A stretch of DNA of 64,000 nt from Candidatus Micrarchaeota archaeon (GTDB lineage: Archaea > Micrarchaeota > Micrarchaeia > Micrarchaeales > CABMGC01): contig JAJZYR010000003.1 in assembly GCA_021797995.1 (NCBI GenBank), forward strand, positions 8,798 to 72,797. The letters are read 5' to 3'. Under the pieces are notes generated by a model, which was not told where the DNA came from, did no database searches, and saw only the letters and a list, made by a program, of their open reading frames with translations. How positions within the stretch are numbered: position 1 is the stretch's first letter; every line of letters starts with the position of its first letter. Shown here piece after piece: positions 5,538 through 60,753 of the stretch. The position numbers were made by a program, and so were the translations under genes.

Positions 5538-6059
5538 ATGGCAGAGACCAAGATCTACATTGACGATAATGTCGACAAGAAACTGCGGGAGGAGGCGATG
5601 GCCAGGTTCGGCTACGGCCGCGGTTCCATAAGCAGCGCGGTCGAGGAGGCGATAGTGCAATGGCTCCGGCGCGACGGCATCATAAGGAAAAGGCTCGATG
5701 CCATCGTAGACATGGCCAAGAAGGACAATGGCGTCATCGCTGTACTGCTCTTCGGCAGTTATGCCAGAAAGGAGCACGACTATGTTGATGTTGATGTGGC
5801 ACTGCTGCTTGAAAAGGATGCCGCATCGTCGGACGAAAGGCTTTCGTACTCGAATGCCGAAGGCGGCTATGAAGATCATCTGGTTGACCTCTCGATACTG
5901 AACAAGATGCCGCTTGATGCCCAGAGTAAGATACTGAACGAGGCGGAAATATTGTATGTCAGGGACAAGGCAAAATTATATGACTACAGTATAGACGTAA
6001 TCGGCCGCTGGTCTGATTTCAAGCCAAGGCTTGAAGCGACATTGAACTTGAACAGGTGA
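5538..6059 (+). CDS. minimal nucleotidyltransferase (MNT antitoxin-type) with N-terminal ribbon-helix-helix-like segment
   Basis: 173-aa ORF with NTase core LLFGSYARKEHDYVDVDVALLL (GS...DxD). The N-terminus KIYIDDNVDKKLREEAMARFG...AVEEAIVQWL resembles CopG/Arc RHH. Confidence 0.75.
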   Translation: MAETKIYIDDNVDKKLREEAMARFGYGRGSISSAVEEAIVQWLRRDGIIRKRLDAIVDMAKKDNGVIAVLLFGSYARKEHDYVDVDVALLLEKDAASSDERLSYSNAEGGYEDHLVDLSILNKMPLDAQSKILNEAEILYVRDKAKLYDYSIDVIGRWSDFKPRLEATLNLNR

Positions 6060-6114
6060 TCCCCTGATTGATATCATCAGGATAAAACGCAAGCTGGCCG
6101 ATCTTGAGCGGTAC

Positions 6115-6486
6115 ATGAAGAGGCTTGAGGCTCTGGCTCCGAAGAGCGCGGATTCCTATATAAAAGCCGATCCTAACATAAAGGATGCCGTTGAGAGGAA
6201 CCTTCAGCTGGTCAGCGACGCGGAACTCGACATAGCGATGCAGCTCTACAAAGGGATGGAGCTGAGGCTGGGAGGAGATGACGAGTCGGTGCTGGAACGC
6301 GTTGAACCTAAGCTCGGAAAGAGCATAGTCTCGAAGCTTAAGGAGAGGAGGAAGTTGAGGAACGCGCTGATACACGCATATGCCGAATCGGCATATGACA
6401 AGGAAGCGTTCGCACAGGCGCATGGCCGTGATGACATAGGAGCTTTCATCAGGAAGGTAAACGAGCTAATGAAGGCAAGCGCCTGA
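6115..6486 (+). CDS. HEPN-domain protein, DUF86 type (putative toxin partner of MNT)
   Basis: Contains RNALIHAY (Rx4H plus Y), the DUF86/HEPN signature, immediately downstream of the MNT gene. The real N-terminus may lie upstream of the first ATG (see findings). Confidence 0.75.
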   Translation: MKRLEALAPKSADSYIKADPNIKDAVERNLQLVSDAELDIAMQLYKGMELRLGGDDESVLERVEPKLGKSIVSKLKERRKLRNALIHAYAESAYDKEAFAQAHGRDDIGAFIRKVNELMKASA

Positions 6487-6699
6487 CCCGTCCGGCATCA
6501 TCGCTTGCAGCAAGGCCGAGCACGCCAAAGCTGAACTGCGCCTCAACAACATCTGAGATGCAGGGCGAACCACGCCGGTTTTGTTTATAAAATAGGGGAT
6601 ATGTTTATAAAAAGAATTTATCAACACATATTATAAACAAAGCCCGTGCAGCCTGCACATTTAAATATTCTTTCCAGCAAAATAGTATCAGATGGGTCT

Positions 6700-7014
6700 A
6701 TGCTAGAGCTAACCAAGGATAATTTCGAGGACGGAGTGAAGAAGTCGCAGCTTCCTGTTATAGTCGACTGCTGGGCGAGCTGGTGCGGCCCATGCCGTGT
6801 CTTTGCCCCTGTCTTTGAAGCGCTTGAGGGCGACTTCGCCAAGAGGGTCAAGTTCGCAAAACTCAACGTAGACGACAACCAGGAACTTGCCGGCCAGTAC
6901 AATATAATGAGCATACCGACCACGCTCCTCTTCGAGAAGGGCGAGGTAAAGGCCATGTCCGTGGGCGCGCTGCCGAAGGAGAGCCTCAGGAAGTGGCTGG
7001 AGAAAAACCTATAA
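6700..7014 (+). CDS. trx: thioredoxin
   Basis: WCGPC active site in PVIVDCWASWCGPCRVF. The ORF is open from 6646; Met at 6700 gives the usual thioredoxin length, but 6646 remains a possible start. Confidence 0.88.
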   Translation: MLELTKDNFEDGVKKSQLPVIVDCWASWCGPCRVFAPVFEALEGDFAKRVKFAKLNVDDNQELAGQYNIMSIPTTLLFEKGEVKAMSVGALPKESLRKWLEKNL

Positions 7015-7034
7015 CTCTTCCTGTCACATGATAA

Positions 7035-8324
7035 ATGAAAGCGGAGGCTATGCCGATAGAACTATTGCGCGGCACGCGCGACTATGATCCCGAAGGCGCG
7101 ATAAAGCTAAGGGAGATAACGTCGAAGATAGAGGAGGTGTTCAAGAGGTTCGGCTTCTATCCGATAGAGACCCCCAGCCTGGAAAGCACAGAGACGCTCA
7201 ACGCGAAGGCATATGGCCAGGAGGCCAGGAAGGAAATGTATACGATAGACGGCAGCGAGGCCGGGTTGATATACGACCTCACCGTGCCCCTGGCAAGGTA
7301 CTTCTCATCGAACAGGAGCATAAGCCTGCCATTCAAGAGATACCAGATAGGGAGAGTGTGGAGGAGGGAGGAGCCGCAGAAGATGAGGTCAAGGGAGCTG
7401 ATACAGGCAGACGCTGACATCGTGGGGAGCGCGGAACCGGCAAGCGATGCGGAGGTGATTGCCTCAACAGCCATAAGCCTTGAGTCAGTGGGCCTGACGG
7501 GATACACGATCCTGCTGAGCAGCAGGGTGTTCCTGAGCGAGGTGCTGTCCCTGTTCAAGGTGCCCCAGGAAAAGCAGAGCCAAGCCATAACTGCGATAGA
7601 CAAGCTGGAGAAGATAACCGCTGGAGGCGTCAGGGAGCAGCTGCTGGCGCTCGGCATCGACAGCCAGAGTGCCGACTCCCTGCTTAACTTCATCGCCGAG
7701 GAGGGCGGAAACAGCGAGAAGCTGCACAAGCTCGCGACAAACTGCCCCGGGGCGAAGGCGGAGGTGGACAGGATGCTCATGGTGCTCGGGCTCCTCTCGA
7801 ACTACCATCTTAACGGCGAGGTGAAGATAGACCTTTCGCTCGCAAGGGGGCTTGACTATTACACCGGGGCGGTATGGGAATTCGTGGAGTTCGAAGACGG
7901 CAGGAGGCTGCCGACGATTGCCTCTGGAGGCAGGTACGACAGACTCATCGGCATATACGCGAAGACGCAGCAGCCCGCAGTTGGATCGTCGATAGGCATA
8001 AGCAGGATATATGACCTGGTGCAGATCCCGGATCCGAGGCCGACCTATGCAGCGGTATATGTTGCAAACATAGGCCCAGAAAACCTGGATTATGCCATGA
8101 CGATTGCAAACTTCATGAGGGCCGCCGGCATATACACCGACCTCAATCTCACTGCGAGGAGCATATCAAAGCAGCTCGAGTATGCTAATTCGATGAAGGT
8201 AAGATACGCCGTAATAGTAGGCACGCAGGAGAGGGCCGCAAACAAGGTAAGGATGCGCGACATGTCCTCAAGAAGCGAAGAGTTATTATCCCTTGATGAA
8301 GCAATATCAAAGGCGAAGGGCTGA
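7035..8324 (+). CDS. hisS: histidyl-tRNA synthetase
   Basis: 429-aa class II aaRS pattern with LLRGTRDY N-terminus, RYFSS...FKRYQIGRVWRREEPQ motif 2 region, GGRYD and a C-terminal anticodon-binding domain. The start could be the Met at 7050. Confidence 0.9.
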   Translation: MKAEAMPIELLRGTRDYDPEGAIKLREITSKIEEVFKRFGFYPIETPSLESTETLNAKAYGQEARKEMYTIDGSEAGLIYDLTVPLARYFSSNRSISLPFKRYQIGRVWRREEPQKMRSRELIQADADIVGSAEPASDAEVIASTAISLESVGLTGYTILLSSRVFLSEVLSLFKVPQEKQSQAITAIDKLEKITAGGVREQLLALGIDSQSADSLLNFIAEEGGNSEKLHKLATNCPGAKAEVDRMLMVLGLLSNYHLNGEVKIDLSLARGLDYYTGAVWEFVEFEDGRRLPTIASGGRYDRLIGIYAKTQQPAVGSSIGISRIYDLVQIPDPRPTYAAVYVANIGPENLDYAMTIANFMRAAGIYTDLNLTARSISKQLEYANSMKVRYAVIVGTQERAANKVRMRDMSSRSEELLSLDEAISKAKG

Positions 8325-8328
8325 CCTA

Positions 8329-8838
8329 ATGGCAAGATCTGAGATGGAGGACGTAACGGCAAAGGCGCTCGGGAAAGGCGGCATACTGGTAAAGCTGTAC
8401 TTTGACATGCACAGCAAGGAGCAATCAGGCTTGCAGCCGATACTCGCCGACCTGATCAACAACAGGCTGCTGAAATCAAAGGGCGTAATCTACGGCTTCG
8501 GGAGCATAGAGGAGCCCATCTTTGACCGCGACATGTACACGACAACGGCCACCGTCACCGTGCTCGTCGACAGCCTGGAGGACCTTGCAGGAGTGGTATT
8601 CATGTTCGCACCAGCCGCAATAGAGGTGATGAAGCCGGAGATGCAGTATGTCATCAAGCAGTCTGAGCTGCAGGACCTGCTCCTCAGCCTCTCCACAATC
8701 TCAGCGAACTATTCGGAGCACATCCTGAAGAATACGATGTCAGAAGAGGAATTCGAGAAGGTCCGCCAGGACCTGAAGTCGAGGGAGGAGCTGGGCAGGA
8801 AGATCCTAAAGAAACCAGGCGGCGCGGAAGGCGCATGA
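8329..8838 (+). CDS. hypothetical protein
   Basis: ORF open from 8293. Met at 8329 avoids overlap with hisS. No recognisable motif. Confidence 0.5.
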   Translation: MARSEMEDVTAKALGKGGILVKLYFDMHSKEQSGLQPILADLINNRLLKSKGVIYGFGSIEEPIFDRDMYTTTATVTVLVDSLEDLAGVVFMFAPAAIEVMKPEMQYVIKQSELQDLLLSLSTISANYSEHILKNTMSEEEFEKVRQDLKSREELGRKILKKPGGAEGA

Positions 8839-8960
8839 CCCTTCCGCAGGCAAAGTGCGCCGGCCCCCCGCCGGCTATGACAGGCCGTGGCTATGCGCAG
8901 AATATTCTGGATACAATGAAATGCGGCAGCAGTGTTATACAAGATACGCAAACGAGGCAT

Positions 8961-10067
8961 CTAGTCCGCGAGCCCCCTGAGGAAGAACCTCCTTATTACG
9001 AGGCTAGGCCTGTCCATATCGCCGTATCTCTCGAGAAACCCCTCAATTCCAATCGCCTTAGACATGCTTATGATCCTGCCTATCGACTCCGGACCGAGGG
9101 ATGAATAGAGCCTGTTTATCATCGAATGCAGTTTCATATCCATCCCATACCTGGACATGAACCTCTTCTCATAGGCAGAGAGATCCAATCCGTTCCTTAT
9201 ATGCCCCTTTATCGCATCGGCCGCCATCAGTGCGGCATTGCCCCCAAATATAATGCCCCCTCCTGTAGTCGACTTTACCTGACCCGCAGCGTCACCGACA
9301 AGCAGGACCTCCCTTTTGGGGTCTACGATCCTCTCCCTTCTTGCCATAGGTATTATGCTCGCGCCGCCGCAGATCGGCCTGCTTTTGCCTATTGCCTCTG
9401 CAACTTCCTTGGTCCTCAGGAATCGTTCGAGCACGTGCCTGCTGTTTACCGAATGGGCCGTAGTCCCGACCCCCACCTCAAGCACGTCCTTTGCGTTTGG
9501 GCAGAGCCAGGCGAAGAGGCCAGGCCACGACCTGCTGTCGAAGAAGAGATCTGCAGCATCGGGTTCGGCCATTGTCACGTTGTACTCCTGCTTGTAAGTG
9601 ATCGCATAAGGAGGTGCGGCCCCCATTCCGAAGTGCTTTGCCACCGTGGACACTGCGCCGTCGGCCCCGATTATTACCGAGTCCTCCGCAAGTGCGTCAA
9701 GCTCCTTCCTCGCGATTCTCTTCCCGGTCACTATGCTTGTGCCGGCTCTCTCTGCATTATCAATGCAGATTTCGTTGAGCCTCTTCCTGTCGAGCACAGC
9801 GGCCACGGCACCCCTGGCGCGTATCCTCATCGTCCTTCCATTCGCATGTATGTTCGCACCCCTCAGCGTGTTCGTTACCGCCTTGGTGTAATCGAGGCCG
9901 AGCGTTCCCAGTCCGGTTAGGGAGAGTATGCCGGAGGCATGGATTCCCTCTCCAGGAACCGGTTTCTGGTCGTAAACAGTGGTAATTATCCCGTCCGCGG
10001 ACAGGCTCCTTGCGGCTATGAGCCCGGCGGTGCCGCCTCCTATCACAGCAACAGACTCCTTCTTCAT
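8961..10067 (-). CDS. geranylgeranyl reductase-family FAD-dependent oxidoreductase
   Basis: 368-aa ORF with N-terminal VAVIGGGTAGLIAA Rossmann motif and LLVGDAAGQVKSTTGGGI, typical of digeranylgeranylglycerophospholipid reductase relatives. Confidence 0.75.
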   Translation of the reverse strand: MKKESVAVIGGGTAGLIAARSLSADGIITTVYDQKPVPGEGIHASGILSLTGLGTLGLDYTKAVTNTLRGANIHANGRTMRIRARGAVAAVLDRKRLNEICIDNAERAGTSIVTGKRIARKELDALAEDSVIIGADGAVSTVAKHFGMGAAPPYAITYKQEYNVTMAEPDAADLFFDSRSWPGLFAWLCPNAKDVLEVGVGTTAHSVNSRHVLERFLRTKEVAEAIGKSRPICGGASIIPMARRERIVDPKREVLLVGDAAGQVKSTTGGGIIFGGNAALMAADAIKGHIRNGLDLSAYEKRFMSRYGMDMKLHSMINRLYSSLGPESIGRIISMSKAIGIEGFLERYGDMDRPSLVIRRFFLRGLAD

Positions 10068-10144
10068 GCTAACTACGATTGATGGATTATTAGAGAGAAG
10101 ATTCTTAAATGGGGTGGGAATAGATTAAATCATGGGTTGGGGCA

Positions 10145-11389
10145 TTGGCGCATAGGGTATACGGTAACACGGTGTTAAAGGGGCTTGCGCGCCTGCCAGG
10201 CACCGAAGCGCAGCAGGAGCGGAGGGTTCTGCCGGCAACACTTACCTCAGAGATAGACAGGCTCAGGTCCCACGACGGGTGGCTCAATGCAGGCATTCCA
10301 AAGTACAATCGCCTATTCGGGAGGGATGCTGCGATAAGCGCCTGGCAGCTCTTGAGATACGATCCTGAGATAGCAAGAAGCACGCTGCTTGAGCTGGCGA
10401 GGCTGCAAGGAACAAAGAACGACCCCGAGACAGGGGAGCAGCCTGGAAAGATACTGCATGAGAACACTGCCGTGGCGATACCTGGGATCAGCTGGCTCAG
10501 GCCTAACAGGCCCGTTTACTTCTCCATCGACTCGACTCCGCTATTCCTGATACTAGCCGGGAAGTATTATGAAGCGACGGGAGACAAGATGACGCTAAGA
10601 AAGCTGCAGCCCAACCTTGTCTCCGCAGCAAAATGGATTCTTGATTACGGAATGAGTTCAGGACTGGTAAGGTACGACAAGCCTGCCGGCGGGAAAGGGC
10701 TTCAGAGCCAGAGCTGGAAGGACGGAATAGGGGTCCTCATGGACACGCTGGAGGGGCCAGTCGCGGTGGTTGAAGTCCAGGGGTATGCATACTGCGCGCT
10801 TAGGTCAACTGCCGCCATCCTCGCCGGCTTTGCCGATGGCGCGCTTGCCGTAAGAATGAAGGAGGCGGCAGTGCTGCTCAAGAAGCGTTTCAACGAGGAA
10901 TTCTGGCCCCCAGGCGCCGATTTTCCGTACCTCACGATAGACGGCATGGGAAGGAAGCAGGCGGCGATAACGAGCAATCCTGGCCATCTGCTTTTCACAG
11001 GCATACTCAACGCCGACCAGGCCAGCCGCATAGTCTCAAGGATCTTCAAGCCAGACATGTTTACGCGGTGCGGCATAAGGACGCACTCCGCGGCAAGCCC
11101 TGACTTTGATGAATACGCTTATCAGCTCGGTTCGGTCTGGCCTCACGACAACTGGGTCATAGCGCAGGGTCTAAAATCTGCCGGATATCCTTGGCATTAC
11201 GACGCGATAAAGAGGGCAGTATCAGGCGCGCTGGTCGGTATGGGAAGCAGTCCGGAGTATATGCCCATTGGGTTTAACGGCTCTGCCATGGGCCTGGCCG
11301 ATAGCAGGCTGGTCTCGCCGCCGTGCACGCCGCAGGCATGGAGCTCAGGCGCCCTTGCTGACTTCCTGACGGAAGTGCGCAGGGGCTGA
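10145..11389 (+). CDS. glycogen-debranching-enzyme-like (alpha/alpha)6-barrel glycosidase (amylo-alpha-1,6-glucosidase family)
   Basis: 414-aa ORF whose YNRLFGRDAAISAW, STPLFLIL, VQGYAY and GSVWPHDNW blocks resemble the archaeal GDE C-terminal domain. The listed start is TTG with no in-frame ATG nearby. Confidence 0.6.
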   Translation: MAHRVYGNTVLKGLARLPGTEAQQERRVLPATLTSEIDRLRSHDGWLNAGIPKYNRLFGRDAAISAWQLLRYDPEIARSTLLELARLQGTKNDPETGEQPGKILHENTAVAIPGISWLRPNRPVYFSIDSTPLFLILAGKYYEATGDKMTLRKLQPNLVSAAKWILDYGMSSGLVRYDKPAGGKGLQSQSWKDGIGVLMDTLEGPVAVVEVQGYAYCALRSTAAILAGFADGALAVRMKEAAVLLKKRFNEEFWPPGADFPYLTIDGMGRKQAAITSNPGHLLFTGILNADQASRIVSRIFKPDMFTRCGIRTHSAASPDFDEYAYQLGSVWPHDNWVIAQGLKSAGYPWHYDAIKRAVSGALVGMGSSPEYMPIGFNGSAMGLADSRLVSPPCTPQAWSSGALADFLTEVRRG

Positions 11390-11574
11390 CAGCGTAAGCG
11401 GGAAACCGCGTCCTGTCCATTGGCGGGGGTAGGTCATGAGCCAAGACCAACGCGCACAGCACCACAATATTTTAATATGTGTACATCCTATCCTTATTCA
11501 TATCTTGCCAGCTAACTAAGTTGTCTGTCATCTTCTGGCAGGATCGTTTATCCAGGCTTCAAACGTGGCGCTGA

Positions 11575-14500
11575 ATGGGCTTAATTACCGCAGTATTGGT
11601 GGGCTTTTTATCGATCATAGTTCCTGGGTTCTTCATAGCTCTCGGGCTGCTGAAGAAGACGAAATTCAACATGTTCGAGATAGTGGTAATAGGGTTCATA
11701 CTGGGGATGGTGCTGCCGCCAATGGCCGTATGGCTCGAGTCATACCTCATCCCCTATTCATCCGCCTTCTCCTTCTCGGCAGGCTTATACAACCTCAACG
11801 TCCTTGCAATAACCATAATAGGAATTGCGCTCTCCTTCAAGCAGGGCGCGTTTGACTCCCTTCCAGCGCTCCTAGGTACGAAGGCCGGGCGGTATCCTGG
11901 CATAAAGGCAGTAAATGCCGACTACAAAAAGAGATTAGCCGAGGTCAGGGATACGATTTCAAGGCTAGGCATGGACCTTCAGGTAATAAAGGAGCACCAG
12001 AAGGAGGAAGACAGCCTTGCGAGAAGGCACGAGGATGAGATTGCGCTCCTGCAGGATGCAGGCCCCGAAGAGCGCGCAAAGGTGGCCGAGCTGCACCGCA
12101 ATCAGGAGAAGACGCTTTACGAGGAGCACGAGCAGGAGGAAAAGCTGCTGATAAGCAGGGCTTCAGGCGCAGCCGCACCGCAGCGCAAACCCGGCATAAA
12201 GCTGGTCTGGGTGCTCCTGGCGCTCCTCATGGTATTCACCTTTGCGACAAGGTTCGTAAACGTCGGAATCTCTCCAAAGTACTTCGAGTTTGATCCGTAC
12301 TTCGACATGGTCAGCACGCAGTACATCCTTACCTTCGGATACCAGCTCTACCTGGACCATTCCGCGTGGCCAGCAGTGCCTGCCGGCACGAACCACAGAG
12401 CCGAGCCCCTGATACCGTATATCGAGGCATACTGGTACGACGTTGCAGGTCCGCAGCCGCAGGCAACCCTTGGCGGAACGGTGCCGATTGCCGGAAGCGT
12501 TAAGTATACACCACCAAATACGAATCTGCTGAGCCTTGTCTCGAGCTACTATCCCCCTATTGCAGCAGCGCTTCTCGTATTCGTGGTGTTCCTCTTCCTG
12601 TACCACATATACGGCGAGTATCCTGCGGTGATAGGCGCCGTGCTTGTTGCCGCAATGCCCACACTCATAACCACGTTCATAGCAGGCGAGCAGCTCCTTG
12701 AGCCCTTCGGCATCATGCTGCTCTTCTTTTTCTTCGGCACCTACCTCATAGCGGCCGAGAATCCGAAGAACCCCAGATACGCAGTGCTTGCAGGGCTTGC
12801 ATTCGCTGCAAACTTCCTCGGAGCGCAGTACTACACCGTACCTACTGGCATACTTGCGGTGTATATCGTAGCCCAGGGCCTCTTCAATGTGATTAAGGGC
12901 AGCCAGATGCGCGACTTCTACAAGATGAACGCAATTGTTATCGCCGTATTCGCCGTGCTGTTTATACTCTACATGCCGTACGCGGCGACGCTGCAGAACA
13001 GGATCCCTGCATACTTCGGGATTCCGATAATAATCAGCTTCCCCCTCATAGCGCTTCTGCTTGTTGCGGTCTTCCAGGCGGTGCCGGTGCTGCTGAAGAG
13101 ATACGGCGTGCTGGTCCGCCAGCTCGACTGGAGAGTCTATCTCGGATGGCTCGCGGTCCTGCTCCTAGCGCTCATAGTCGCGGTTGCGCTCACGCCGCTG
13201 GGGGGCCCCGTAAAGGCATATCTCTCGTTAAGCTCGCACTTCACCCATCCCTCAACTCCCCTCTTCATGACGGTGCAGCAGTACGCGCCCACGGGCCTTG
13301 ACTTCAATTTCGGGGCTGCTGGCTTCGGGCCCATCGGAGCAAATCTCTTCGCCGGAAGCGGGAGCAACGGCTACTCGTTCATAATCTGGCCTGTGCTAAT
13401 CGCATTCGCCGCCCTGGAATTCTATGCCATCTTCGTCAAGAACTCGCAGACCGGAATAATGGTGCTTGCCATAGTGGTTCCGCTGGCATACGCAGGCATG
13501 TCGGAAGTGAAGTATCTGCCCCACTTCGGGGTTGCGTACATCCTTGCCATCTGCGTGGTCATAGGCGAGGTGATGGTCTGGCTCAAGATCAAGCCAGGCG
13601 AGACAGAGAGACCAGCCATGTTCTTCTACGCCTTCATCATAGCGCTCCTGTTCCTGAGCGTCATTGCCAGCGCACTTGTACCCCAGAATTCCGGAACCGC
13701 GAACCTTGCCGCAGCAATAATCGCACTGGTCCTGTTTGCCGCAGGCATGATATTCTATGTCATCGCCGGCGCCTGGGGCGCCATAAGCGGCAGCCCGAAG
13801 GTGCCGGTAACCGGCATCATAACGGCAATACTGCTCATGGCTATACTGTCGGTGTCCGGCGTGCCGTTCGGTTCCGCCCTTCTTGCCAGCCTTGCCATGG
13901 GAATCGTGGTGCTTCTTGTAATGAGCCTCAGTAGTCTCTCTGTATCGAGGAACTACAAGTACTTTATGTGCTTATATATGTTCATGGCCCTGGTTGTCCT
14001 CATAGAGCTCGTGCCAAGCTTCACGTCTGTCTTCTCGGCATCCATGAACCAGAATTGCAACAGCATAATCAGAAGCAACAATGCGGTCGGAGAGGACATG
14101 TTCTGCAGCACTGTCCCACAGTACTGGCTCCAGGCCACGGCGTGGATGCGCGAGAACATAGGCCCGTACGGCCCAAGGATACTGGCGTGGTGGGACTACG
14201 GCGACTGGATTAACTGGTTCGGCAACAGCAACGCCGTGATCAGGGGCGACAACTCCGTGCCAACCGAGGACTATGCCACTGCCGCGAGATACGTGCTCGG
14301 GCAGTCCGACGGCTACGGCCCGTCAAACCTCGCAAGCTACATGAACTCGATACAGTCAAAGTACGTGCTCTTCGACGACCAGCTTGTCCCGAAGTGGGGC
14401 GCTCTGGACTTCCTCGCGTGCATATACACGAACCAGACGAGCCAGGCGTATGCGTACAGCGCCGGCAAGCAGTACGGCCAGCCTTTCCTGCTCGGTACCT

Positions 14501-15072
14501 CCCCATGCGAGGTCTCTCACTCCCCTGCAGAGCTGCTCGTTCCTGTAAACGTCACGTCCCCGGGAGCATACTGCTCGTTCTCCAATGCGACGTCAGCCTA
14601 CCTCAACAGCGTCGTGATCATAGGGTCATCAGTGCCGCAGGCCGTCAACCAGACATACTGCCTGCCTACGAGCTTCCTGAACAACTATCCCAACTCCTCT
14701 CCCACAAGGCTGCTTACGTCAAACGGGCTTAAGACAAACGCGATAGTGACGGCGCAGCTCTTCCAGGGGCTGCTTAACGCAGGCCCGGGCCAGCAGTTCG
14801 CAGAGTTCATGATACTCTACCTTCCAAACGGCCCGAACGGCACGGTTACCGATGCTCCGTCAAGGTTCTACAGCTCGAACTACTATCGCGGCTTCTTCCT
14901 GGGCAAGCTTCCAGGCTTCACGCTCGCATATCCGTCTAACTTCACCGGCGTGAATTACGTCAATGCGTCCAGCGGGATAATGATCTTCTCCGTGGACAAT
15001 TATACCGGCGGCAACGCGCCGACGACGCCAAAGCCGTCATACGCGAATAACAGCTACACGATGCCTGGCTGA
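11575..15072 (+). CDS. aglB: oligosaccharyltransferase AglB (STT3 family) with about 205-aa N-terminal extension
   Basis: 1165-aa multi-TM ORF with a WWDYG motif (ILAWWDYGDWINWFG) and an EL1-type acidic motif (YFEFDPYFD). The C-terminal soluble domain is rich in N-x-S/T sequons. Confidence 0.85.
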   Translation: MGLITAVLVGFLSIIVPGFFIALGLLKKTKFNMFEIVVIGFILGMVLPPMAVWLESYLIPYSSAFSFSAGLYNLNVLAITIIGIALSFKQGAFDSLPALLGTKAGRYPGIKAVNADYKKRLAEVRDTISRLGMDLQVIKEHQKEEDSLARRHEDEIALLQDAGPEERAKVAELHRNQEKTLYEEHEQEEKLLISRASGAAAPQRKPGIKLVWVLLALLMVFTFATRFVNVGISPKYFEFDPYFDMVSTQYILTFGYQLYLDHSAWPAVPAGTNHRAEPLIPYIEAYWYDVAGPQPQATLGGTVPIAGSVKYTPPNTNLLSLVSSYYPPIAAALLVFVVFLFLYHIYGEYPAVIGAVLVAAMPTLITTFIAGEQLLEPFGIMLLFFFFGTYLIAAENPKNPRYAVLAGLAFAANFLGAQYYTVPTGILAVYIVAQGLFNVIKGSQMRDFYKMNAIVIAVFAVLFILYMPYAATLQNRIPAYFGIPIIISFPLIALLLVAVFQAVPVLLKRYGVLVRQLDWRVYLGWLAVLLLALIVAVALTPLGGPVKAYLSLSSHFTHPSTPLFMTVQQYAPTGLDFNFGAAGFGPIGANLFAGSGSNGYSFIIWPVLIAFAALEFYAIFVKNSQTGIMVLAIVVPLAYAGMSEVKYLPHFGVAYILAICVVIGEVMVWLKIKPGETERPAMFFYAFIIALLFLSVIASALVPQNSGTANLAAAIIALVLFAAGMIFYVIAGAWGAISGSPKVPVTGIITAILLMAILSVSGVPFGSALLASLAMGIVVLLVMSLSSLSVSRNYKYFMCLYMFMALVVLIELVPSFTSVFSASMNQNCNSIIRSNNAVGEDMFCSTVPQYWLQATAWMRENIGPYGPRILAWWDYGDWINWFGNSNAVIRGDNSVPTEDYATAARYVLGQSDGYGPSNLASYMNSIQSKYVLFDDQLVPKWGALDFLACIYTNQTSQAYAYSAGKQYGQPFLLGTSPCEVSHSPAELLVPVNVTSPGAYCSFSNATSAYLNSVVIIGSSVPQAVNQTYCLPTSFLNNYPNSSPTRLLTSNGLKTNAIVTAQLFQGLLNAGPGQQFAEFMILYLPNGPNGTVTDAPSRFYSSNYYRGFFLGKLPGFTLAYPSNFTGVNYVNASSGIMIFSVDNYTGGNAPTTPKPSYANNSYTMPG

Positions 15073-28508: not shown

Positions 28509-29057
28509 TTATGTATACTTGGCGTTTATCGACGCAATCTGCTGTATCTGCGGAACCCCGTATCCCGGAGAAGTATAATTGAGCCAGATGTATCCTGTAA
28601 ATGAGCTTCCGAGCTGGCCGGTGGCGACGATGCCGCCGGGCCCGTAGCACGGAACCTCAAACTGCATCTGCATGCCGCTGTACATGCTGTTCTTTGAGAA
28701 GACCATTCCCGGGTAATACAGTGAATTCGCCGTTACGTAGATATTCCCCTCGCCGGGCGTGTCTCCGATGGAGTTTGCATCTGCGGCACACGCAATCCCG
28801 TTGATCTCTATCTGCGCCCCGGTATCCTGGGCGAGGGAGAGGCTGAGTATCCCGCTGACCGAGTTTATCGAAAAGGAGCCGCATGAGAATTCCGCCGTGG
28901 GGTTGCAATACGGCATTGCCGTGTACGAGTTATTCAATCCTATCTTGTAGAGGGCGATGATCGCTATGCCTATCGCCAGAATGGCCACTCCGTAAGAGAT
29001 GAGGAAGTCAAGCGCCGCCTGCCCCCTCGAGCTTCTACCAACGCGGCAGTCTTCCAA
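28509..29057 (-). CDS. archaeal type IV pilin-like protein (class III signal peptide)
   Basis: N-terminus ...RSSRGQAALDFLISYGVAILAIGIAIIAL matches the [KR]G-Q/A plus hydrophobic helix prepilin signal. TTG start directly abuts the rps2 stop. Confidence 0.7.
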   Translation of the reverse strand: MEDCRVGRSSRGQAALDFLISYGVAILAIGIAIIALYKIGLNNSYTAMPYCNPTAEFSCGSFSINSVSGILSLSLAQDTGAQIEINGIACAADANSIGDTPGEGNIYVTANSLYYPGMVFSKNSMYSGMQMQFEVPCYGPGGIVATGQLGSSFTGYIWLNYTSPGYGVPQIQQIASINAKYT

Positions 29058-53080: not shown

Positions 53081-54340
53081 GACCGACATAATTGATTTCT
53101 CCTCCTAGCACCTGACGCCGCAACAAGTCAGATAATGTTGCGGCGTGATGTATAAACAGGTGCAAACATGGAAATAGCAATAGACCTCGGAAAGTGGAAG
53201 AGTTACGTTGTCATGGAAGACAACGGCAAGATTGTAAAAGAAGGATACACGGGGACGACAAAAGAGGAGTTCTTCGCATTCTTCGGACAAGTAAATAATC
53301 CGAAGATAATAGTTGAGGCCAGTAGTACTGTAAACAGGATTGCGAATATTTTTGAAGGATATGACCTTACCGTAGCCCATCCTGCAAAAGTCAAACTGAT
53401 TGCACAGTTGGTAAAGAAGACAGACAAAGTTGATACGCATACGATAATGGATCTGTACAAAAAGGACTATCTTCCGAAGTCTTATCTGCCGTCAAAGGAG
53501 ATAAGGGATATGAGAGACATCTGCAGAGAGAGGTCTTTTCTGGTAGGGCAGAGAACCGCAATCAAGAACAAGATACGTTACCAGTCATATTGCCTCGGAA
53601 TAGAGTTCAAAACATGGACAAAAAGAAACATAAAAATGCTGAAGGAAGAACCAAAACTGAGGCTCCTGATGACACAACTTGAGTCTATTACTCATACAAT
53701 AACCAAATATGAACGTATGATAAAAGACGCGGCAGTAGAAGACGCCAATGCAAGGCTGATAGACACAATACCTGGAATCGGAAAAGTAAGTGCATTGATC
53801 ATTGCATCTGAAATAGGGGATGTAAATCGTTTCCCATCAGAGGAAAACATCTTCGCATACACGGGATTGGTGCCAAGAATATACCAGTCTGGCAATAAGG
53901 AATGGAAGGGCCACATTACAAAAGGCAATGGCTTCCTGAAGTGGACGTTAGTAGAATGTGTAGGGATACACATAATGAACTCTACAGATTCGCCTATAAC
54001 TGCAGCCTATGAACGCATACGAGAAAGAAGAGGAAACAAAAAGGCAAAGATTGCAGCTGCAAGACATATGCTGCGGGCAATCTATTATATGCTCAAACGG
54101 AATCAGAATTTTGATTCCTATTTGGGAGGCAGGAGGATGCGTTGATCCCACCGTGTTGCGATGCAACGTGCTTTAGACTAACGCCCTCCTGCCCTAATGA
54201 AAGTCAGAATATCGCACTGCGATGAATAGTAGAGCATTATGAAAGTATTAAAAGATGAATGGTGATAAATGATTAACCGAGAATATTATTCTGGCCTTGC
54301 GGCTCTTGCCGCTAGGTCGGAGAAATCAATATAGTAGCGG
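53081..54340 (+). mobile_element. IS110-family insertion sequence (IS1111-like layout); boundaries approximate
   Basis: DEDD-type transposase flanked by imperfect inverted repeats: ATTGATTTCTCCtcCTAGC (53091-53109) and GCTAGgtcGGAGAAATCAAT (54311-54330). The 12-mer and 6-mer blocks are exact. The interior is AT-richer than the flanks and interrupts tmk/dcd. Confidence 0.7.
53168..54145 (+). CDS. IS110-family transposase/recombinase (DEDD N-terminal domain plus Tnp_20 C-terminal domain)
   Basis: 325-aa ORF with N-terminal IAIDLGK, C-terminal LIDTIPGIGKVSALIIASEIGDVNRF and YQSGN (Ser nucleophile context). Confidence 0.88.
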   Translation: MEIAIDLGKWKSYVVMEDNGKIVKEGYTGTTKEEFFAFFGQVNNPKIIVEASSTVNRIANIFEGYDLTVAHPAKVKLIAQLVKKTDKVDTHTIMDLYKKDYLPKSYLPSKEIRDMRDICRERSFLVGQRTAIKNKIRYQSYCLGIEFKTWTKRNIKMLKEEPKLRLLMTQLESITHTITKYERMIKDAAVEDANARLIDTIPGIGKVSALIIASEIGDVNRFPSEENIFAYTGLVPRIYQSGNKEWKGHITKGNGFLKWTLVECVGIHIMNSTDSPITAAYERIRERRGNKKAKIAAARHMLRAIYYMLKRNQNFDSYLGGRRMR

Positions 54341-57545: not shown

Positions 57546-57824
57546 TTATCGCGACAGGTCGTCAGCTTCCTCCCTGCTCGCCTCCTGGGCAGAAGGTGAC
57601 GGTGAGGAGACAAGGACAACATCCCCAACATTTTTTACGTTCTTGTAAAGTATGCTCTTCTGCTTGAGGACAGACTTTGCATCGCCCTTTGCATTCTTCC
57701 AAGGTATCATAAGCAGCCTGCTTACCTCGCCCTTCTCCAAGTCCACTATTACGTCCTGTACCTCTCCGAGGTATTGGCCTCCGTCGCTGTATATATCCAT
57801 GCGGTAGATTTCCGAAATCTTCAT
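57546..57824 (-). CDS. PRC-barrel domain protein
   Basis: MKISEIYRMDIYSDGGQYLGEVQDVIVDLEKGEVSRLLM is a PRC-barrel pattern. Start chosen 33 nt downstream of the TATA (57851-57862); the ORF is open to 57872. Confidence 0.7.
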   Translation of the reverse strand: MKISEIYRMDIYSDGGQYLGEVQDVIVDLEKGEVSRLLMIPWKNAKGDAKSVLKQKSILYKNVKNVGDVVLVSSPSPSAQEASREEADDLSR

Positions 57825-57850: not shown

Positions 57851-57862
57851 TAAGATATAAAA
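57851..57862 (-). promoter_or_regulatory. TATA box for the PRC-barrel gene (TTTTATATCTTA on minus strand)
   Basis: Spacing to the ATG at 57824 fits a leaderless transcript. Lies 16 nt outside the left inverted repeat of the insertion. Confidence 0.4.
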
Positions 57863-57877
57863 AGCTTTGCAATAGCG

Positions 57878-57893
57878 GGGCTTTGTTAAATAA
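57878..57893. repeat. left terminal inverted repeat GGGCTTTGTTAAATAA
   Basis: Exact reverse complement of 59540-59555. Preceded by AATAGCG (57871-57877). Confidence 0.8.
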
Positions 57894-57991
57894 CTACCAT
57901 TTTGCCTGACTTCTTTAACTGTTTGCCCACTTTTTAAACAATTGGCGATCCACGGGATTGGGTTCATTACGAAAGGGAATATTCAAGAAGA

Positions 57992-58267
57992 TTAGAAATC
58001 GCCCTTGTCAAGATAAGACCAATAATCGCGAAGTCGGCTTCGGAGTTGCTCAGAAACATAAAACACATCGGGAGGCCTGTTGAGATATCTATCGTAGATA
58101 AAGTGCTGATGTTGCTGATGAAGGACATATTCAGTCTCAGCAATAGAAGAACTGCAGGTTTTTATCCGTCTTGAAGCCGATTTCGAAGATAAAGACAACC
58201 TACAAAACGGTGGAAAGGCTCTACTCTGATCAGTAGTTTCTATCGTTATACACAACATGTTTACCAT
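57992..58267 (-). CDS. hypothetical protein (91 aa) inside the insertion
   Basis: ORF only, with no recognisable motif and low GC. Confidence 0.35.
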   Translation of the reverse strand: MVNMLCITIETTDQSRAFPPFCRLSLSSKSASRRIKTCSSSIAETEYVLHQQHQHFIYDRYLNRPPDVFYVSEQLRSRLRDYWSYLDKGDF

Positions 58268-58389
58268 AATGATACGGAAGAAGGGACTGCGCGGCGAACA
58301 TTATGCGAGGGCACGCCATAAGTACTTTAAGAAGGATATAGACTCATTACTTTTGGATGTTGGATTAAGTGCCTTAGATGCATAAGCTT

Positions 58390-58926
58390 TCATCTTGTCG
58401 TATTTATTGTCAAACCAGCTATAGATTGGTAATATACTATGCTATTTCCAGCGACGCTATAAGATACCCAAATAGTTCCTTCCACATTAGTTCCTTCCAC
58501 ATGGTTTTGAGGGTTGCTTTTCAAGGTTACTCTCACACCATTTGGATTACCAGGTTGTAATTCACCAATAGATGTTACATTGATGCCACTTGCAAAGGAA
58601 GCAGGGCATAAACATTGTTGAGAGTAGTTGTTGTCGTTTATCGAAACGAATGCAACTTTAACATTAGTCCAATTAACATTAGTCCAACTCGCTCCAAGAT
58701 CTTGCATACCCCAATTTAGTGTTATGTCTCCTGTAGAAGCTGAATAACTTATATTTGAGCATACAAAACCAGCATTAGGAAGACATTGACTACTTACAGC
58801 GCTCGGCACACCAAGCAGATTAGATACAGATTTGGGAAGAGATAAATCTCCAAGGAATACCAATACTGCAAGAATAATAACCATAATTACTAAGATTGCA
58901 CCTCCTATTACTCGCATGCCTACCAT
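58390..58926 (-). CDS. pilin-like secreted protein, paralogue of 28509-29057
   Basis: N-terminal hydrophobic helix MRVIGGAILVIMVIILAVLVFLG. It shares C-x-P-x-A-x-F-x-C...G-x-[IL]-[ST]-L...Q-D-x-G-A and a C-terminal IW-x-x-Y block with the chromosomal pilin-like protein. Confidence 0.6.
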   Translation of the reverse strand: MVGMRVIGGAILVIMVIILAVLVFLGDLSLPKSVSNLLGVPSAVSSQCLPNAGFVCSNISYSASTGDITLNWGMQDLGASWTNVNWTNVKVAFVSINDNNYSQQCLCPASFASGINVTSIGELQPGNPNGVRVTLKSNPQNHVEGTNVEGTIWVSYSVAGNSIVYYQSIAGLTINTTR

Positions 58927-58986
58927 AAAATCTGCTAAACATATCTCCTGAGATATTTATTAAAGTGTTACTTCCTATACATAGTT

Positions 58987-59490
58987 ATGACGGAGCAACA
59001 ATCAACATCAAATAGTAACAAATTTTATATTCTGTTAATAGCAGGAGTGATTGTATTACTAATCGGTGTATTTGTAATGGGCTCAGATAGCTGCTTATTT
59101 ACTGGTGAAAACCCGTTTTGTAATATTCTTGGCGTAGACCCAATCCAGCTTGGATTTGTAGTGGCGTTGATTGGAACACTTATATTTTTATTATCGATAG
59201 CCAAGATATGTCTTTCACTATACCAAAACTCACAGATTAAAAATCTGTATTATATTTTACTCACAAGCATAATAGCCTTAATAGTTGGTGAAACGTTGAT
59301 ACTAATGTCAGGTTTCTCTAATACAGAAAGTGATACCCAATTGCTTGTGGCTAATCTCTTTAATATAAATGCGATAACTTCATCTTTTGAAATATATGTA
59401 GAGGGCTACGCATTTATTATAATTGGTGTGTTAGGCTTCGTTGTATCTATCATCTCTGTTTTTCTATATAAGAGAGCTGGAAAAACTTAA
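58987..59490 (+). CDS. small integral membrane protein (about 4 TM helices) inside the insertion
   Basis: 167-aa ORF with four long hydrophobic stretches, divergent from the pilin-like gene across a 60-bp AT-rich spacer. Confidence 0.5.
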   Translation: MTEQQSTSNSNKFYILLIAGVIVLLIGVFVMGSDSCLFTGENPFCNILGVDPIQLGFVVALIGTLIFLLSIAKICLSLYQNSQIKNLYYILLTSIIALIVGETLILMSGFSNTESDTQLLVANLFNINAITSSFEIYVEGYAFIIIGVLGFVVSIISVFLYKRAGKT

Positions 59491-59539
59491 TAGGGTTTCA
59501 CTTTTTAAACAAATTTTAGACTTTTTAAACAAAAGCCGC

Positions 59540-59555
59540 TTATTTAACAAAGCCC
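59540..59555. repeat. right terminal inverted repeat TTATTTAACAAAGCCC
   Basis: Exact reverse complement of 57878-57893. Followed by AATAGCG (59556-59562), and AATAGCGG recurs at 59568-59575. Confidence 0.8.
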
Positions 59556-59577
59556 AATAGCGGCCATAATAGCGGAA

Positions 59578-60753
59578 CTATGGCTGGAGCCAGTCAATCT
59601 CGTAATATTCCTGCCTGCTGTGCGGCAGCCTTATCTGCCTTATACGATAGTAAGTTACCGCCGTTTCCCTGTCCATTATGGCAAGGAGAAGGTCGAGTCT
59701 GCTCTCCCTCGCCCTCCTCAGCGCCCCTGCAAACTCCCTGCCCCCTATATACTCCTCCTCGCTGAGCGAGAGCATCGCGAAACGCGGAGGACCGCTATCA
59801 GGAGACTCCGCGTCTCCCCCCTTTCTATGGTACAGTATGTAGTCGAACCCAACATCGCGTTCGTCAGGGTCCCCAGGCACGGCAAGTATGAAGGTCTTCC
59901 GCACGGAATGCGCAACTCTTATCGCCCTGGCCCATTCGGATATCAGCAGCTTGGACTCCTTCGGGAAGACGTGTATGACGTGTTTCGAGTGGATCCAGCC
60001 TGTGCTCTCGCTCTTGAACGGCCTGGCTCCAGGGAAATAAACCCTGAAGTGGGTCCCAAACTTGAAGCCGGTCTTTATGACATAACCCTTCTCCCTCCAG
60101 TCCTTGTAGACCTGATAGAGCCTCGGGAAATCCCTCCTGCGCGCCGCAGCGTGTCTTTCAAGCTCCTTTACGGTTATGTTGTCCAGCACGAGCATTCCGT
60201 GGTCGATGAGAAACAAGGTTTCATAGACGTCGAGCTTGTTCAGCCTACCCCTCTCCGGGGCCTTGTAGGAGCCGTACTGCCCAAACCACAGCCTGTCATA
60301 GATGTCCCTGCCATGCTCGGCATCATCGATTATCGTAAGCAAGTCCGTCTTGAAGAAGACTCCGTGAAGCTTATAGTCGGGAAGCTTAAGCGAGGACACA
60401 GGGTACTCCTTTACCTGCATCCTGCCCGGCTCCGCATAGCTCGAGTCCGGGCTCTTTATAACCAGTCCGCGATCCCTCCAGTCCTTGTACGTAAAGTACC
60501 TCGACGTGAACTTTCCGGATTTCCAGAATGCCGATGCAATGTCGTTGAACGCTACCGGCTTCCCATTTGCAGTGCACTCGGCGTTCCTTACGTCCATGAG
60601 ATAAAGCGCCTCCTCGATCCCCAGGTAGAGTATGCCGTCGACCATGTTCCCGATATGGCCGCCCTTGAGCTGGTCTATTGTGGACTGGTCGTCGGAAATG
60701 ACCTCTTTTTTCGAGATAAGCTTCAGGTGCAGCATGCCATCATTTGCGCACAT
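59578..60753 (-). CDS. endA: tRNA-splicing endonuclease, three-unit single-chain form
   Basis: 391 aa. Central catalytic unit YKDWREKGYVIKTGFKFGTHFRVY...HSKHVIHV...AHSVRKTFILAV (Y/H/K triad context). An N-terminal degenerate copy (YKDWRDRGLVIKS) and an extra C-terminal about 90-aa unit are also present. Confidence 0.85.
   Translation of the reverse strand: MCANDGMLHLKLISKKEVISDDQSTIDQLKGGHIGNMVDGILYLGIEEALYLMDVRNAECTANGKPVAFNDIASAFWKSGKFTSRYFTYKDWRDRGLVIKSPDSSYAEPGRMQVKEYPVSSLKLPDYKLHGVFFKTDLLTIIDDAEHGRDIYDRLWFGQYGSYKAPERGRLNKLDVYETLFLIDHGMLVLDNITVKELERHAAARRRDFPRLYQVYKDWREKGYVIKTGFKFGTHFRVYFPGARPFKSESTGWIHSKHVIHVFPKESKLLISEWARAIRVAHSVRKTFILAVPGDPDERDVGFDYILYHRKGGDAESPDSGPPRFAMLSLSEEEYIGGREFAGALRRARESRLDLLLAIMDRETAVTYYRIRQIRLPHSRQEYYEIDWLQP

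Follow-up and report, generated by a model that had tools for sequence, protein, structure and literature searches.

Between endA, which encodes the tRNA-splicing endonuclease, and a PRC-barrel gene, a 64-kb stretch of contig JAJZYR010000003.1 (GCA_021797995.1, Candidatus Micrarchaeota archaeon, positions 8,798 to 72,797; the whole stretch analysed, hereafter the window) carries a short AT-rich element that with high probability derives from an archaeal IS903-like (IS5-family) transposon, is non-autonomous, carries passenger genes and resembles a mobile insertion cassette (MIC). The locus displays an insertion polymorphism with a precise empty site, the geometry of terminal inverted repeats (TIRs) and target-site duplications (TSDs), homology of both ends to those of transposons in other archaea, and a foreign composition. 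We infer that the element moved as a 1.7-kb unit with its transposase supplied in trans. Its boundaries and immediate neighbours are as follows.

57546-57824, minus strand: PRC-barrel gene, flanking, 92 aa from an ATG at 57824 (Pfam PRC, 8.1e-8).
57870-57878: left TSD copy CAATAGCGG, present once at the junction in the empty sites L002, L003, L006 and L010.
57879-57953, plus strand: End A, with the TIR GGCTTTGTTAAATAA (57879-57893) and subterminal TGACTTCTTTAACTG (57907-57921) and CACTTTTTAAACAA (57928-57941); aligns with the End A of relatives.
59491-59554, minus strand: End B, with the TIR (59540-59554) and two subterminal copies of ACTTTTTAAACAA (59500-59512 and 59520-59532); aligns with the End B of relatives.
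59555-59563: right TSD copy CAATAGCGG, placed by sequence comparison with the empty sites and relatives.
59568-59575: native second AATAGCGG of the target region, outside the element, found in empty sites as CCGCTATT-ATGG-CCGCTATT.
59578-60753, minus strand: endA, flanking, 391 aa (Pfam tRNA_int_endo, 2.6e-31).

Contigs of this locus were collected by exact protein look-up with endA and with a 178-aa cargo protein of the element, and their source records read Candidatus Marsarchaeota archaeon. Four contigs of the same species (L002, L003, L006 and L010), whose endA protein is 100% identical, are empty at the site: endA is followed directly by the PRC-barrel gene across a junction that reads ...CCGCTATTATGGCCGCTATTGCAAAGCTTTTTATATC... 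/ ...CCATAGTTCCGCTATTATGGCCGCTATTGCAAAGCTTTTTATATC..., and the filled allele exceeds the empty one by exactly 1685 bp (1676 + 9). Filled contigs include L001, L005, L007, L011 (GCA_027363825.1), L012 (GCA_023485525.1), L182 (JGI 3300033990) and L183 (GCA_027363965.1). These alleles bear out the central proposal of a preliminary description made from the window's sequence, namely a transposase-less cargo element bounded by TIRs and TSDs between endA and the PRC-barrel gene; they also display the short spacer between the two genes that removal of the element was expected to restore. Among the loci found, none carried the cargo genes without the repeats. The flanks of L002 are 100% identical to the window across 1246 bp and 479 bp, so that the filled and empty alleles separated very recently, and the single-nucleotide polymorphism (SNP) backgrounds differ among the empty contigs (L002 versus L003 and L006).

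The insertion disrupted neither neighbouring gene. The endA stop codon lies 14 bp from the right TSD copy, and the BRE/TATA promoter elements of the PRC-barrel gene (about 57851-57869) adjoin the left copy intact, the promoter sequence being the same whether or not the element is present. Immediately past the endA stop, the native target is a tandem AATAGCGG-CCAT-AATAGCGG (59556-59575) that occurs in the empty sites too; the AATAGCGG copy at 59568-59575, earlier counted as part of the insertion event, therefore belongs to the original sequence.

The ends are marked by two 16-mers, at 57878-57893 (GGGCTTTGTTAAATAA) and 59540-59555, which are exact reverse complements, as first described, with AATAGCG(G) directly outside both. 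No third match to the 16-mer exists across the window, even with up to three mismatches, which speaks against a common promoter motif. Since the tips of the 16-mers are G/C, the junctions can be read either as a 16-bp TIR with a 7-bp TSD or as 15 bp with 9 bp. Comparison with the empty sites and with five related elements assigns the outermost G/C of each 16-mer to the duplication: reading the TIR as 15 bp yields perfect 9-bp duplications in all five independent complete relatives, and reading it as 16 bp yields mismatched tips in three (L080, L172 and L178) of the four relatives having the TIR sequence GGCTTTGTTAAATAA. The element is thus best parsed as 57879-59554 (1676 bp) with 15-bp TIRs and a 9-bp TSD, which retains the repeats initially described as a 16-bp TIR with a 7- or 8-mer flank and corrects their lengths. 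Windowed analysis upheld the AT-richer interior, with a GC content of 0.366 against 0.529 for the rest of the window and a profile that drops to 0.30-0.42 within the element from flanking values of about 0.55.

Beyond the TIRs, about 60 bp at each end of the element match the two distinct ends of related elements. The End A pattern (TIR, about 10 nt, then TGACTTTTTTAACAG) is common to the left end of the window element and to L163, L164, L167, L170, L178, L080 and L172, with 83% identity between the window and L163 over 70 nt (E = 4e-10). The End B pattern (TIR, about 6 nt, then TGTT(T)AAAAAGTC) is found at the right end and in L046, L075, L080, L172 and L178; against the End B of L046, from Methanoperedens, identity reaches 90% over 61 nt (E = 1.6e-14) and includes the duplicated motif. 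The 13-mer ACTTTTTAAACAA, whose three occurrences near the ends had been recognised from the start (57929, 59500 and 59520, every copy on the plus strand), is part of a conserved subterminal repeat and stands at five matches in the window with up to two mismatches, against 0.86 expected. Its like orientation at both ends gives the element a polarity, and transposase binding, accessory-protein binding and termination are possible roles for it.

These ends were recovered from metagenomes with a scan pattern of the TIR followed by N4-7 and TTTTG, and genome matches were then re-aligned. The bare 16-mer was far less discriminating: its 22 single matches in viral contigs were noise, and most of its at least 120 matches in genome contigs were due to chance, with single ends only among the matches listed, four of which (L046, L059, L075 and L080) proved on re-analysis to be real family ends. 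Single-end matches lie in Methanoperedens (L046) and Iainarchaeum (L075) contigs. In the Methanoperedens metagenome-assembled genome (MAG), End B opens onto DNA with open reading frames (ORFs) of no assigned function and a GC content of 0.30 (L046:5735-8000), against 0.41 on the other side; neither a second end nor a transposase was found in this 8-kb locus.

Five complete elements with ends of this type were found, all in other archaeal lineages, four of them through the contigs of four homologues of the L080 transposase (L172, L178, L187 and L189).

L080, 69-5605: complete element of 5535 bp with a perfect 9-bp TSD.
L172, 381-7281: complete element of 6899 bp with the 9-bp TSD GTAATCAAC.
L178 (Nanoarchaeota), 5965-14795: complete element of 8829 bp with the 9-bp TSD CTTGTGTTT.
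L187, 8208-13981: complete element of 5774 bp with the 9-bp TSD GGTTTTTTG.
L189, 6259-15299: complete element of 9041 bp with the 9-bp TSD TGGGTTTTG.

Each encodes a transposase of 406-416 aa that joins a SWIM zinc finger to a DDE_Tnp_1 domain; in the 414-aa protein of L080 the former is at threshold and the latter reaches 7e-24 in Pfam, and homologues of this transposase fall into more than 6400 clusters at E<=1e-10. L080 also encodes an MT-A70 methyltransferase and a MunI-like endonuclease. A DNA methyltransferase gene lies directly downstream of the transposase gene in all five elements, followed by other restriction-modification genes; the called transposase and methyltransferase genes overlap by 4 nt in four copies and lie 1 nt apart in L172. 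Some copies have in common an ORF module of 358, 182 and 172 aa together with a 49-aa NikA-like protein. The autonomous partner that had been sought for the window element thus exists in other archaea, as SWIM-DDE elements of 5.5-9 kb, and neither the window nor the element holds a homologue of their transposase (tblastn E>1). GC contents are 0.28-0.33 in the autonomous relatives and 0.31-0.37 in their flanking sequence; the proximity of the window element (0.37) to these values, together with the step from 0.30 to 0.41 in L046, points to import from a low-GC lineage.

The ends of the family resemble those of the bacterial IS903. A 51-mer of the IS903 end occurs at 100% in more than 5000 plasmids, beside genes annotated as 'IS5-like element IS903B family transposase', and on plasmid Rts1 the ends of IS903B (GGCTTTGTTGAATAAATC) are flanked by the 9-bp TSD GACACAACG. 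The archaeal TIR is identical to the IS903B end at 14 of 15 positions (GGCTTTGTTAAATAA versus GGCTTTGTTGAATAA), and the archaeal transposase aligns with that of IS903B over about 300 residues (21% identity, E = 4e-11, BLASTP). Among NCBIfam models, NF033579 scores highest for the archaeal transposases (117-120 bits), and it is also the best model for IS903B (356 bits).

Inward of End A, the element holds debris of an unrelated insertion sequence (IS), which bears on how and when it arrived.

57954-58294, plus strand: ISNCY-type (ISM1-like) DDE transposase pseudogene fragment, identified by tblastn and DNA alignment and unrelated to the ends of the element.
57992-58267, minus strand: 91-aa ORF, wholly antisense to the transposase remnant, uncalled and without a Pfam or NCBIfam match.
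58295-58389, no strand: 95-bp spacer from the remnant to the 178-aa gene; ISNCY similarity stops at about 58294.

The remnant was reached through a 106-aa ORF of L004/L013 that resembles a transposase N-terminus, which led to the protein P0002 and from there to DDE transposases of about 330 aa with a YREK motif; NCBI names members of the P0002-type family 'ISNCY family transposase'. With P0002 (298 aa) as the query, tblastn placed residues 5-117 at window 57953-58289 on the plus strand, in three frames (E = 2e-24). The closest full-length relative of the fragment is P0027 (88% identical, 147 aa), and in DNA it is about 90% identical to the IS of L020, to which P0027 belongs. That IS (206-1455; 1250 bp) has the TIR GGGATTGGGACGTAAGTCA, the 9-bp TSD TGCTTAGAA and a small DUF2080 ORF. 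Together with L019:1211-2464 it exemplifies complete ISNCY (ISM1-like) ISs of about 1250 bp with 19-20-bp TIRs, an antisense-oriented small DUF2080 ORF and a YREK-motif transposase of 298-328 aa without an above-threshold Pfam match. The TIR GGGATTGGGACGTAAGTCA of L019 and L020 differs from that of the window element, whose TIRs can therefore be ruled out as ISNCY-family TIRs, and the window holds only a dead internal piece of such an IS, cut short on either side and interrupted by two 1-bp deletions, in which neither the catalytic core nor the ISNCY TIRs remain. No ISNCY-family TIR was found at the fragment, and matches in the window to the 11-mer GGGATTGGGAC are at chance level. The possibility that the remnant begins at GGGATTGGG through use of an internal pseudo-end in aberrant ISNCY transposition was ruled out by the frequency of that motif (14 observed, 17.8 expected) and by the absence of a matching 9-bp repeat.

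The ISNCY fragment is thus cargo or debris left by an unrelated IS, and it does not drive the window element. The first impression that the element carries no transposase accordingly stands for a cognate transposase and fails for this relic of another family. The 91-aa ORF listed earlier as a cargo gene of unknown function is probably spurious; it runs antisense to the pseudogene and is uncalled in all seven contigs with gene calls there (L001, L005, L007, L011, L012, L182 and L183). The ISNCY pseudogene bears at least four disabling lesions, against zero substitutions between the filled and empty flanks, which suggests that decay preceded insertion.

On the account that we favour, a SWIM-IS5-type DDE transposase not encoded in the element would have bound both 15-bp ends and cleaved the target CAATAGCGG, which separates the endA stop codon from the PRC-barrel promoter, with a 9-bp stagger; the 1676-bp element would have been joined at the cut, with gap repair duplicating the 9 bp. 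It would have come from a low-GC source already loaded with the dead ISNCY fragment and a divergent pair of intact small membrane or surface genes. Within this account we incline, by no wide measure, to arrival in the present form, with the transposase acting in trans or present only transiently, because the ISNCY fragment bears its several lesions while the filled and empty flanks are identical.

Several observations weigh against this account. Among the 23 contigs read with the 178-aa gene, the element occupies a single chromosomal site, so that repeated mobility is not seen and the evidence of movement consists of a presence/absence polymorphism at that one site. The Marsarchaeota sequence reached yielded no cognate transposase. 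The 117-120 bits of the archaeal transposases fall below the curated NCBIfam cut-off of 140 for IS5. Finally, a variant in L004/L013 (L004:8700-9026; assembly ERZ27237019) matches the window exactly leftward to about 58070, is about 10% diverged from there to 57954, and beyond that point has an intact ISNCY N-terminus, its upstream region and the DUF2080 ORF instead of End A. Contig breaks also fall within the ISNCY remnant, near 58242-58246 (L008, L015 and L017) and at 58016 (L014). The variant and the breaks suggest that other ISNCY copies exist in the population; recombination with one of these or a chimeric assembly would explain both observations, and we can explain the different left part of the variant only in one of these ways.

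The restriction to one locus would also suit a full-length autonomous transposon of 5-9 kb that inserted here and was afterwards stripped of its transposase and the greater part of its content, the 1.7-kb form never having moved. The relatives are indeed 5.5-9 kb long and variable in content, and the element is pieced together from parts, a foreign IS fragment among them. We nevertheless regard such decay in place as unlikely: flanks identical over 1.7 kb between filled and empty alleles sit poorly with several independent lesions in the interior, the interior is without recognisable genes of the usual set of the family, and the contigs read showed no longer intermediate bounded by both family ends. 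Less likely again is an ancestral element lost from the 'empty' strains through precise deletion between the 9-bp repeats or excision by a transposase. Polarity cannot be read from two alleles alone, and this alternative would change nothing else, given that the TIRs, the 9-bp duplication and the transposon homology still imply an original arrival by transposition. The foreign composition speaks against it, as does the single 9-mer, exact in four independent contigs of differing SNP backgrounds, for which an unoccupied ancestral site is the simpler explanation. That the element is not mobile at all, its inverted 16-mers being regulatory or terminator palindromes or chance repeats around an island acquired otherwise, for example by site-specific integration, is effectively excluded: the T-rich subterminal motifs could be archaeal terminators and no integrase or transposase is encoded, yet the 16-mer is otherwise absent from the 64 kb, a search for tRNA or non-coding RNA attachment sites found no tRNA or Rfam RNA at the insertion site, and in unrelated archaea, elements that encode a transposase are bounded by like ends and 9-bp duplications.

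The passengers that would have been delivered by transposition are two divergently oriented genes, the first of which has a chromosomal paralogue elsewhere in the window.

58390-58926, minus strand: passenger gene 1, 178 aa, an N-terminal transmembrane (TM) helix followed by a Cys-containing beta-sandwich (AlphaFold2 model and alignment).
58927-58986, no strand: divergent intergenic region with the AT-rich near-palindrome CTTTAATAAATATCTC...GAGATATTTATTAAAG, read from the sequence.
58987-59490, plus strand: passenger gene 2, 167 aa, with four hydrophobic helices (TM segments read from the sequence).
28509-29057, minus strand: chromosomal paralogue of passenger gene 1, 182 aa, with the class-III-signal-like N-terminus RGQAALDFL (BLASTP and profile).

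The 178-aa gene is identical or 99% identical across the 23 contigs read, and its product has no match in Pfam, NCBIfam, PADLOC or PHROGs. An exhaustive HMMER search gathered 42 cluster representatives at E<1e-3, most of them 146-292 aa long and a few large and multi-repeat, whose alignment displays a hydrophobic N-terminus, two invariant Cys residues and conserved G..W motifs. The paralogy with the gene at 28509-29057, proposed earlier from shared sequence blocks, held up: direct comparison gives 23% identity (E = 0.003, BLASTP), a profile of 22 family members from which the host copy had been left out detects ORF 28512-29057(-) at E = 9.5e-14, and among the 490 ORFs of the window this paralogue and the cargo gene are the only matches to the family profile. 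In the AlphaFold2 model (pLDDT, the predicted local distance difference test, of 85.8) a helix at residues 3-26 precedes eight strands, so that the initial label of pilin-like cargo fits the layout of an N-terminal hydrophobic helix followed by a beta-sandwich domain. The label fails on two other counts. A class III signal peptide (QxSxExxxL-type) is not seen in the N-terminus MVGMRVIGGAILV..., which has no Pfam match, and a Foldseek search of the model against PDB found no fold similarity to solved pilins or archaellins, returning only weak, generic immunoglobulin- or fibronectin type III-like matches (E ~1e-2). Pilin-type class III N-termini do occur in some family members (P0284 and P0303; QSSMEYLMTYGWA) and in the host paralogue. 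For the cargo protein itself, 'pilin-like' denotes an architectural resemblance only.

The 167-aa ORF is called in every contig with gene calls across 58987-59490, and its product matches Pfam DUF996 only below threshold (E = 1.3e-4, with 22.7 bits where 31.3 are required); for both passengers, family scans of Pfam, NCBIfam, PADLOC and PHROGs gave nothing above threshold. The near-palindrome of the 60-bp divergent region lies about 25-35 nt upstream of both start codons and likely forms a bidirectional TATA region, with a putative promoter role. Among the related elements fetched, tblastn found passenger homologues in none except L181. The cargo genes would presumably be expressed, with their products at work on the cell surface; the proposed shuffling of surface proteins by the element is a hypothesis.

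About 4 kb from the element lies a second strain-variable IS hotspot. There the window has an IS110-family transposase gene (53168-54145, plus strand; 325 aa) beside dCTP-deaminase genes, and GCA_023485525.1 has, at about the same position, a Cas12f1-like TNB (TnpB-type) ORF (L012:10590-11027).

Archaeal mobilomes are usually described in terms of simple ISs, miniature inverted-repeat transposable elements (MITEs), casposons, proviruses and integrated plasmids, and passenger-gene transposons are central to bacterial gene flow. According to a 2019 survey, DNA transposons with passengers had not been detected in archaea (PMC6563490). The literature searched yielded no account of a MIC in archaea, no mention of the archaeal TIR string and no description of SWIM-IS5 cargo transposons, and the archaeal family of 5.5-9 kb appears undescribed there. 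This family is named mainly from DPANN MAGs (Nanoarchaeota, Pacearchaeota and Iainarchaeum), and low-GC copies or single ends in the higher-GC Methanoperedens and Marsarchaeota suggest transfer across phyla. Tentatively, and with rather less assurance than we attach to the identity of the element itself, the window element might be the tip of an undescribed and very large family of archaeal unit transposons with IS903-like ends, a SWIM-DDE transposase, 9-bp TSDs, and methyltransferase and restriction-modification genes, its Marsarchaeota copy recording the passage of surface-protein genes between phyla, perhaps out of a low-GC episymbiont. The parent family may be more important than the window element. 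The locus itself offers a natural experiment: a single population contains both the filled and the empty allele, the 9-bp duplication is precise, the composition is foreign, and two intact surface or membrane genes were delivered beside essential genes without disruption. A transposase family with IS903-like ends, carrying restriction-modification genes and further cargo in archaea with small genomes, makes the exchange of defence and surface genes among DPANN-type and other archaea testable, and provides a candidate archaeal transposon tool with defined 15-bp ends.

Among known systems, the bacterial IS903 and IS903B of the IS5 family resemble the window element in the TIR, which begins with GGC and agrees at 14 of 15 positions, and in the 9-bp TSD; unlike them, the element encodes no IS5-family DDE transposase and is thus non-autonomous. 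The autonomous archaeal relatives and IS903B have their best NCBIfam model in common, and their transposases align over about 300 aa. The relatives differ from IS903 in an N-terminal SWIM zinc finger, a transposase identity of about 21%, passenger genes and polar subterminal repeats, and are 5.5-9 kb long against 1.06 kb. The archaeal SWIM-DDE family is thus distantly related to the IS903 group of IS5 and would work in the same way, with a SWIM domain and cargo in addition.

Archaeal MITEs are short, non-coding, multi-copy IS derivatives known from Sulfolobus, methanogens and haloarchaea. The window element is like them in being non-autonomous, derived from an IS family and bounded by TIRs and a TSD, and to that extent its earlier characterisation as MITE-like is apt; at 1676 bp, with two intact ORFs kept in all contigs read, it is neither short nor non-coding. 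As to copy number, two TIR copies lie in the 64-kb window and a single locus was seen among the contigs read.

A further counterpart is MIC231, derived from IS231 in the Bacillus cereus group (Chen et al. 1999, cited in PMC2266710), for which mobilisation in trans is reported to have been shown experimentally. MIC231 and the window element both place IS-type inverted ends and a TSD around passenger genes without a cognate transposase, with mobilisation presumed to occur in trans. They differ in family (IS4/IS231 versus IS5/IS903-like) and domain (bacterial versus archaeal), the window element being represented by one copy. Two features of a MIC are present here: IS ends enclose passengers in place of a cognate transposase, and an autonomous IS with such ends exists, in other archaeal lineages.

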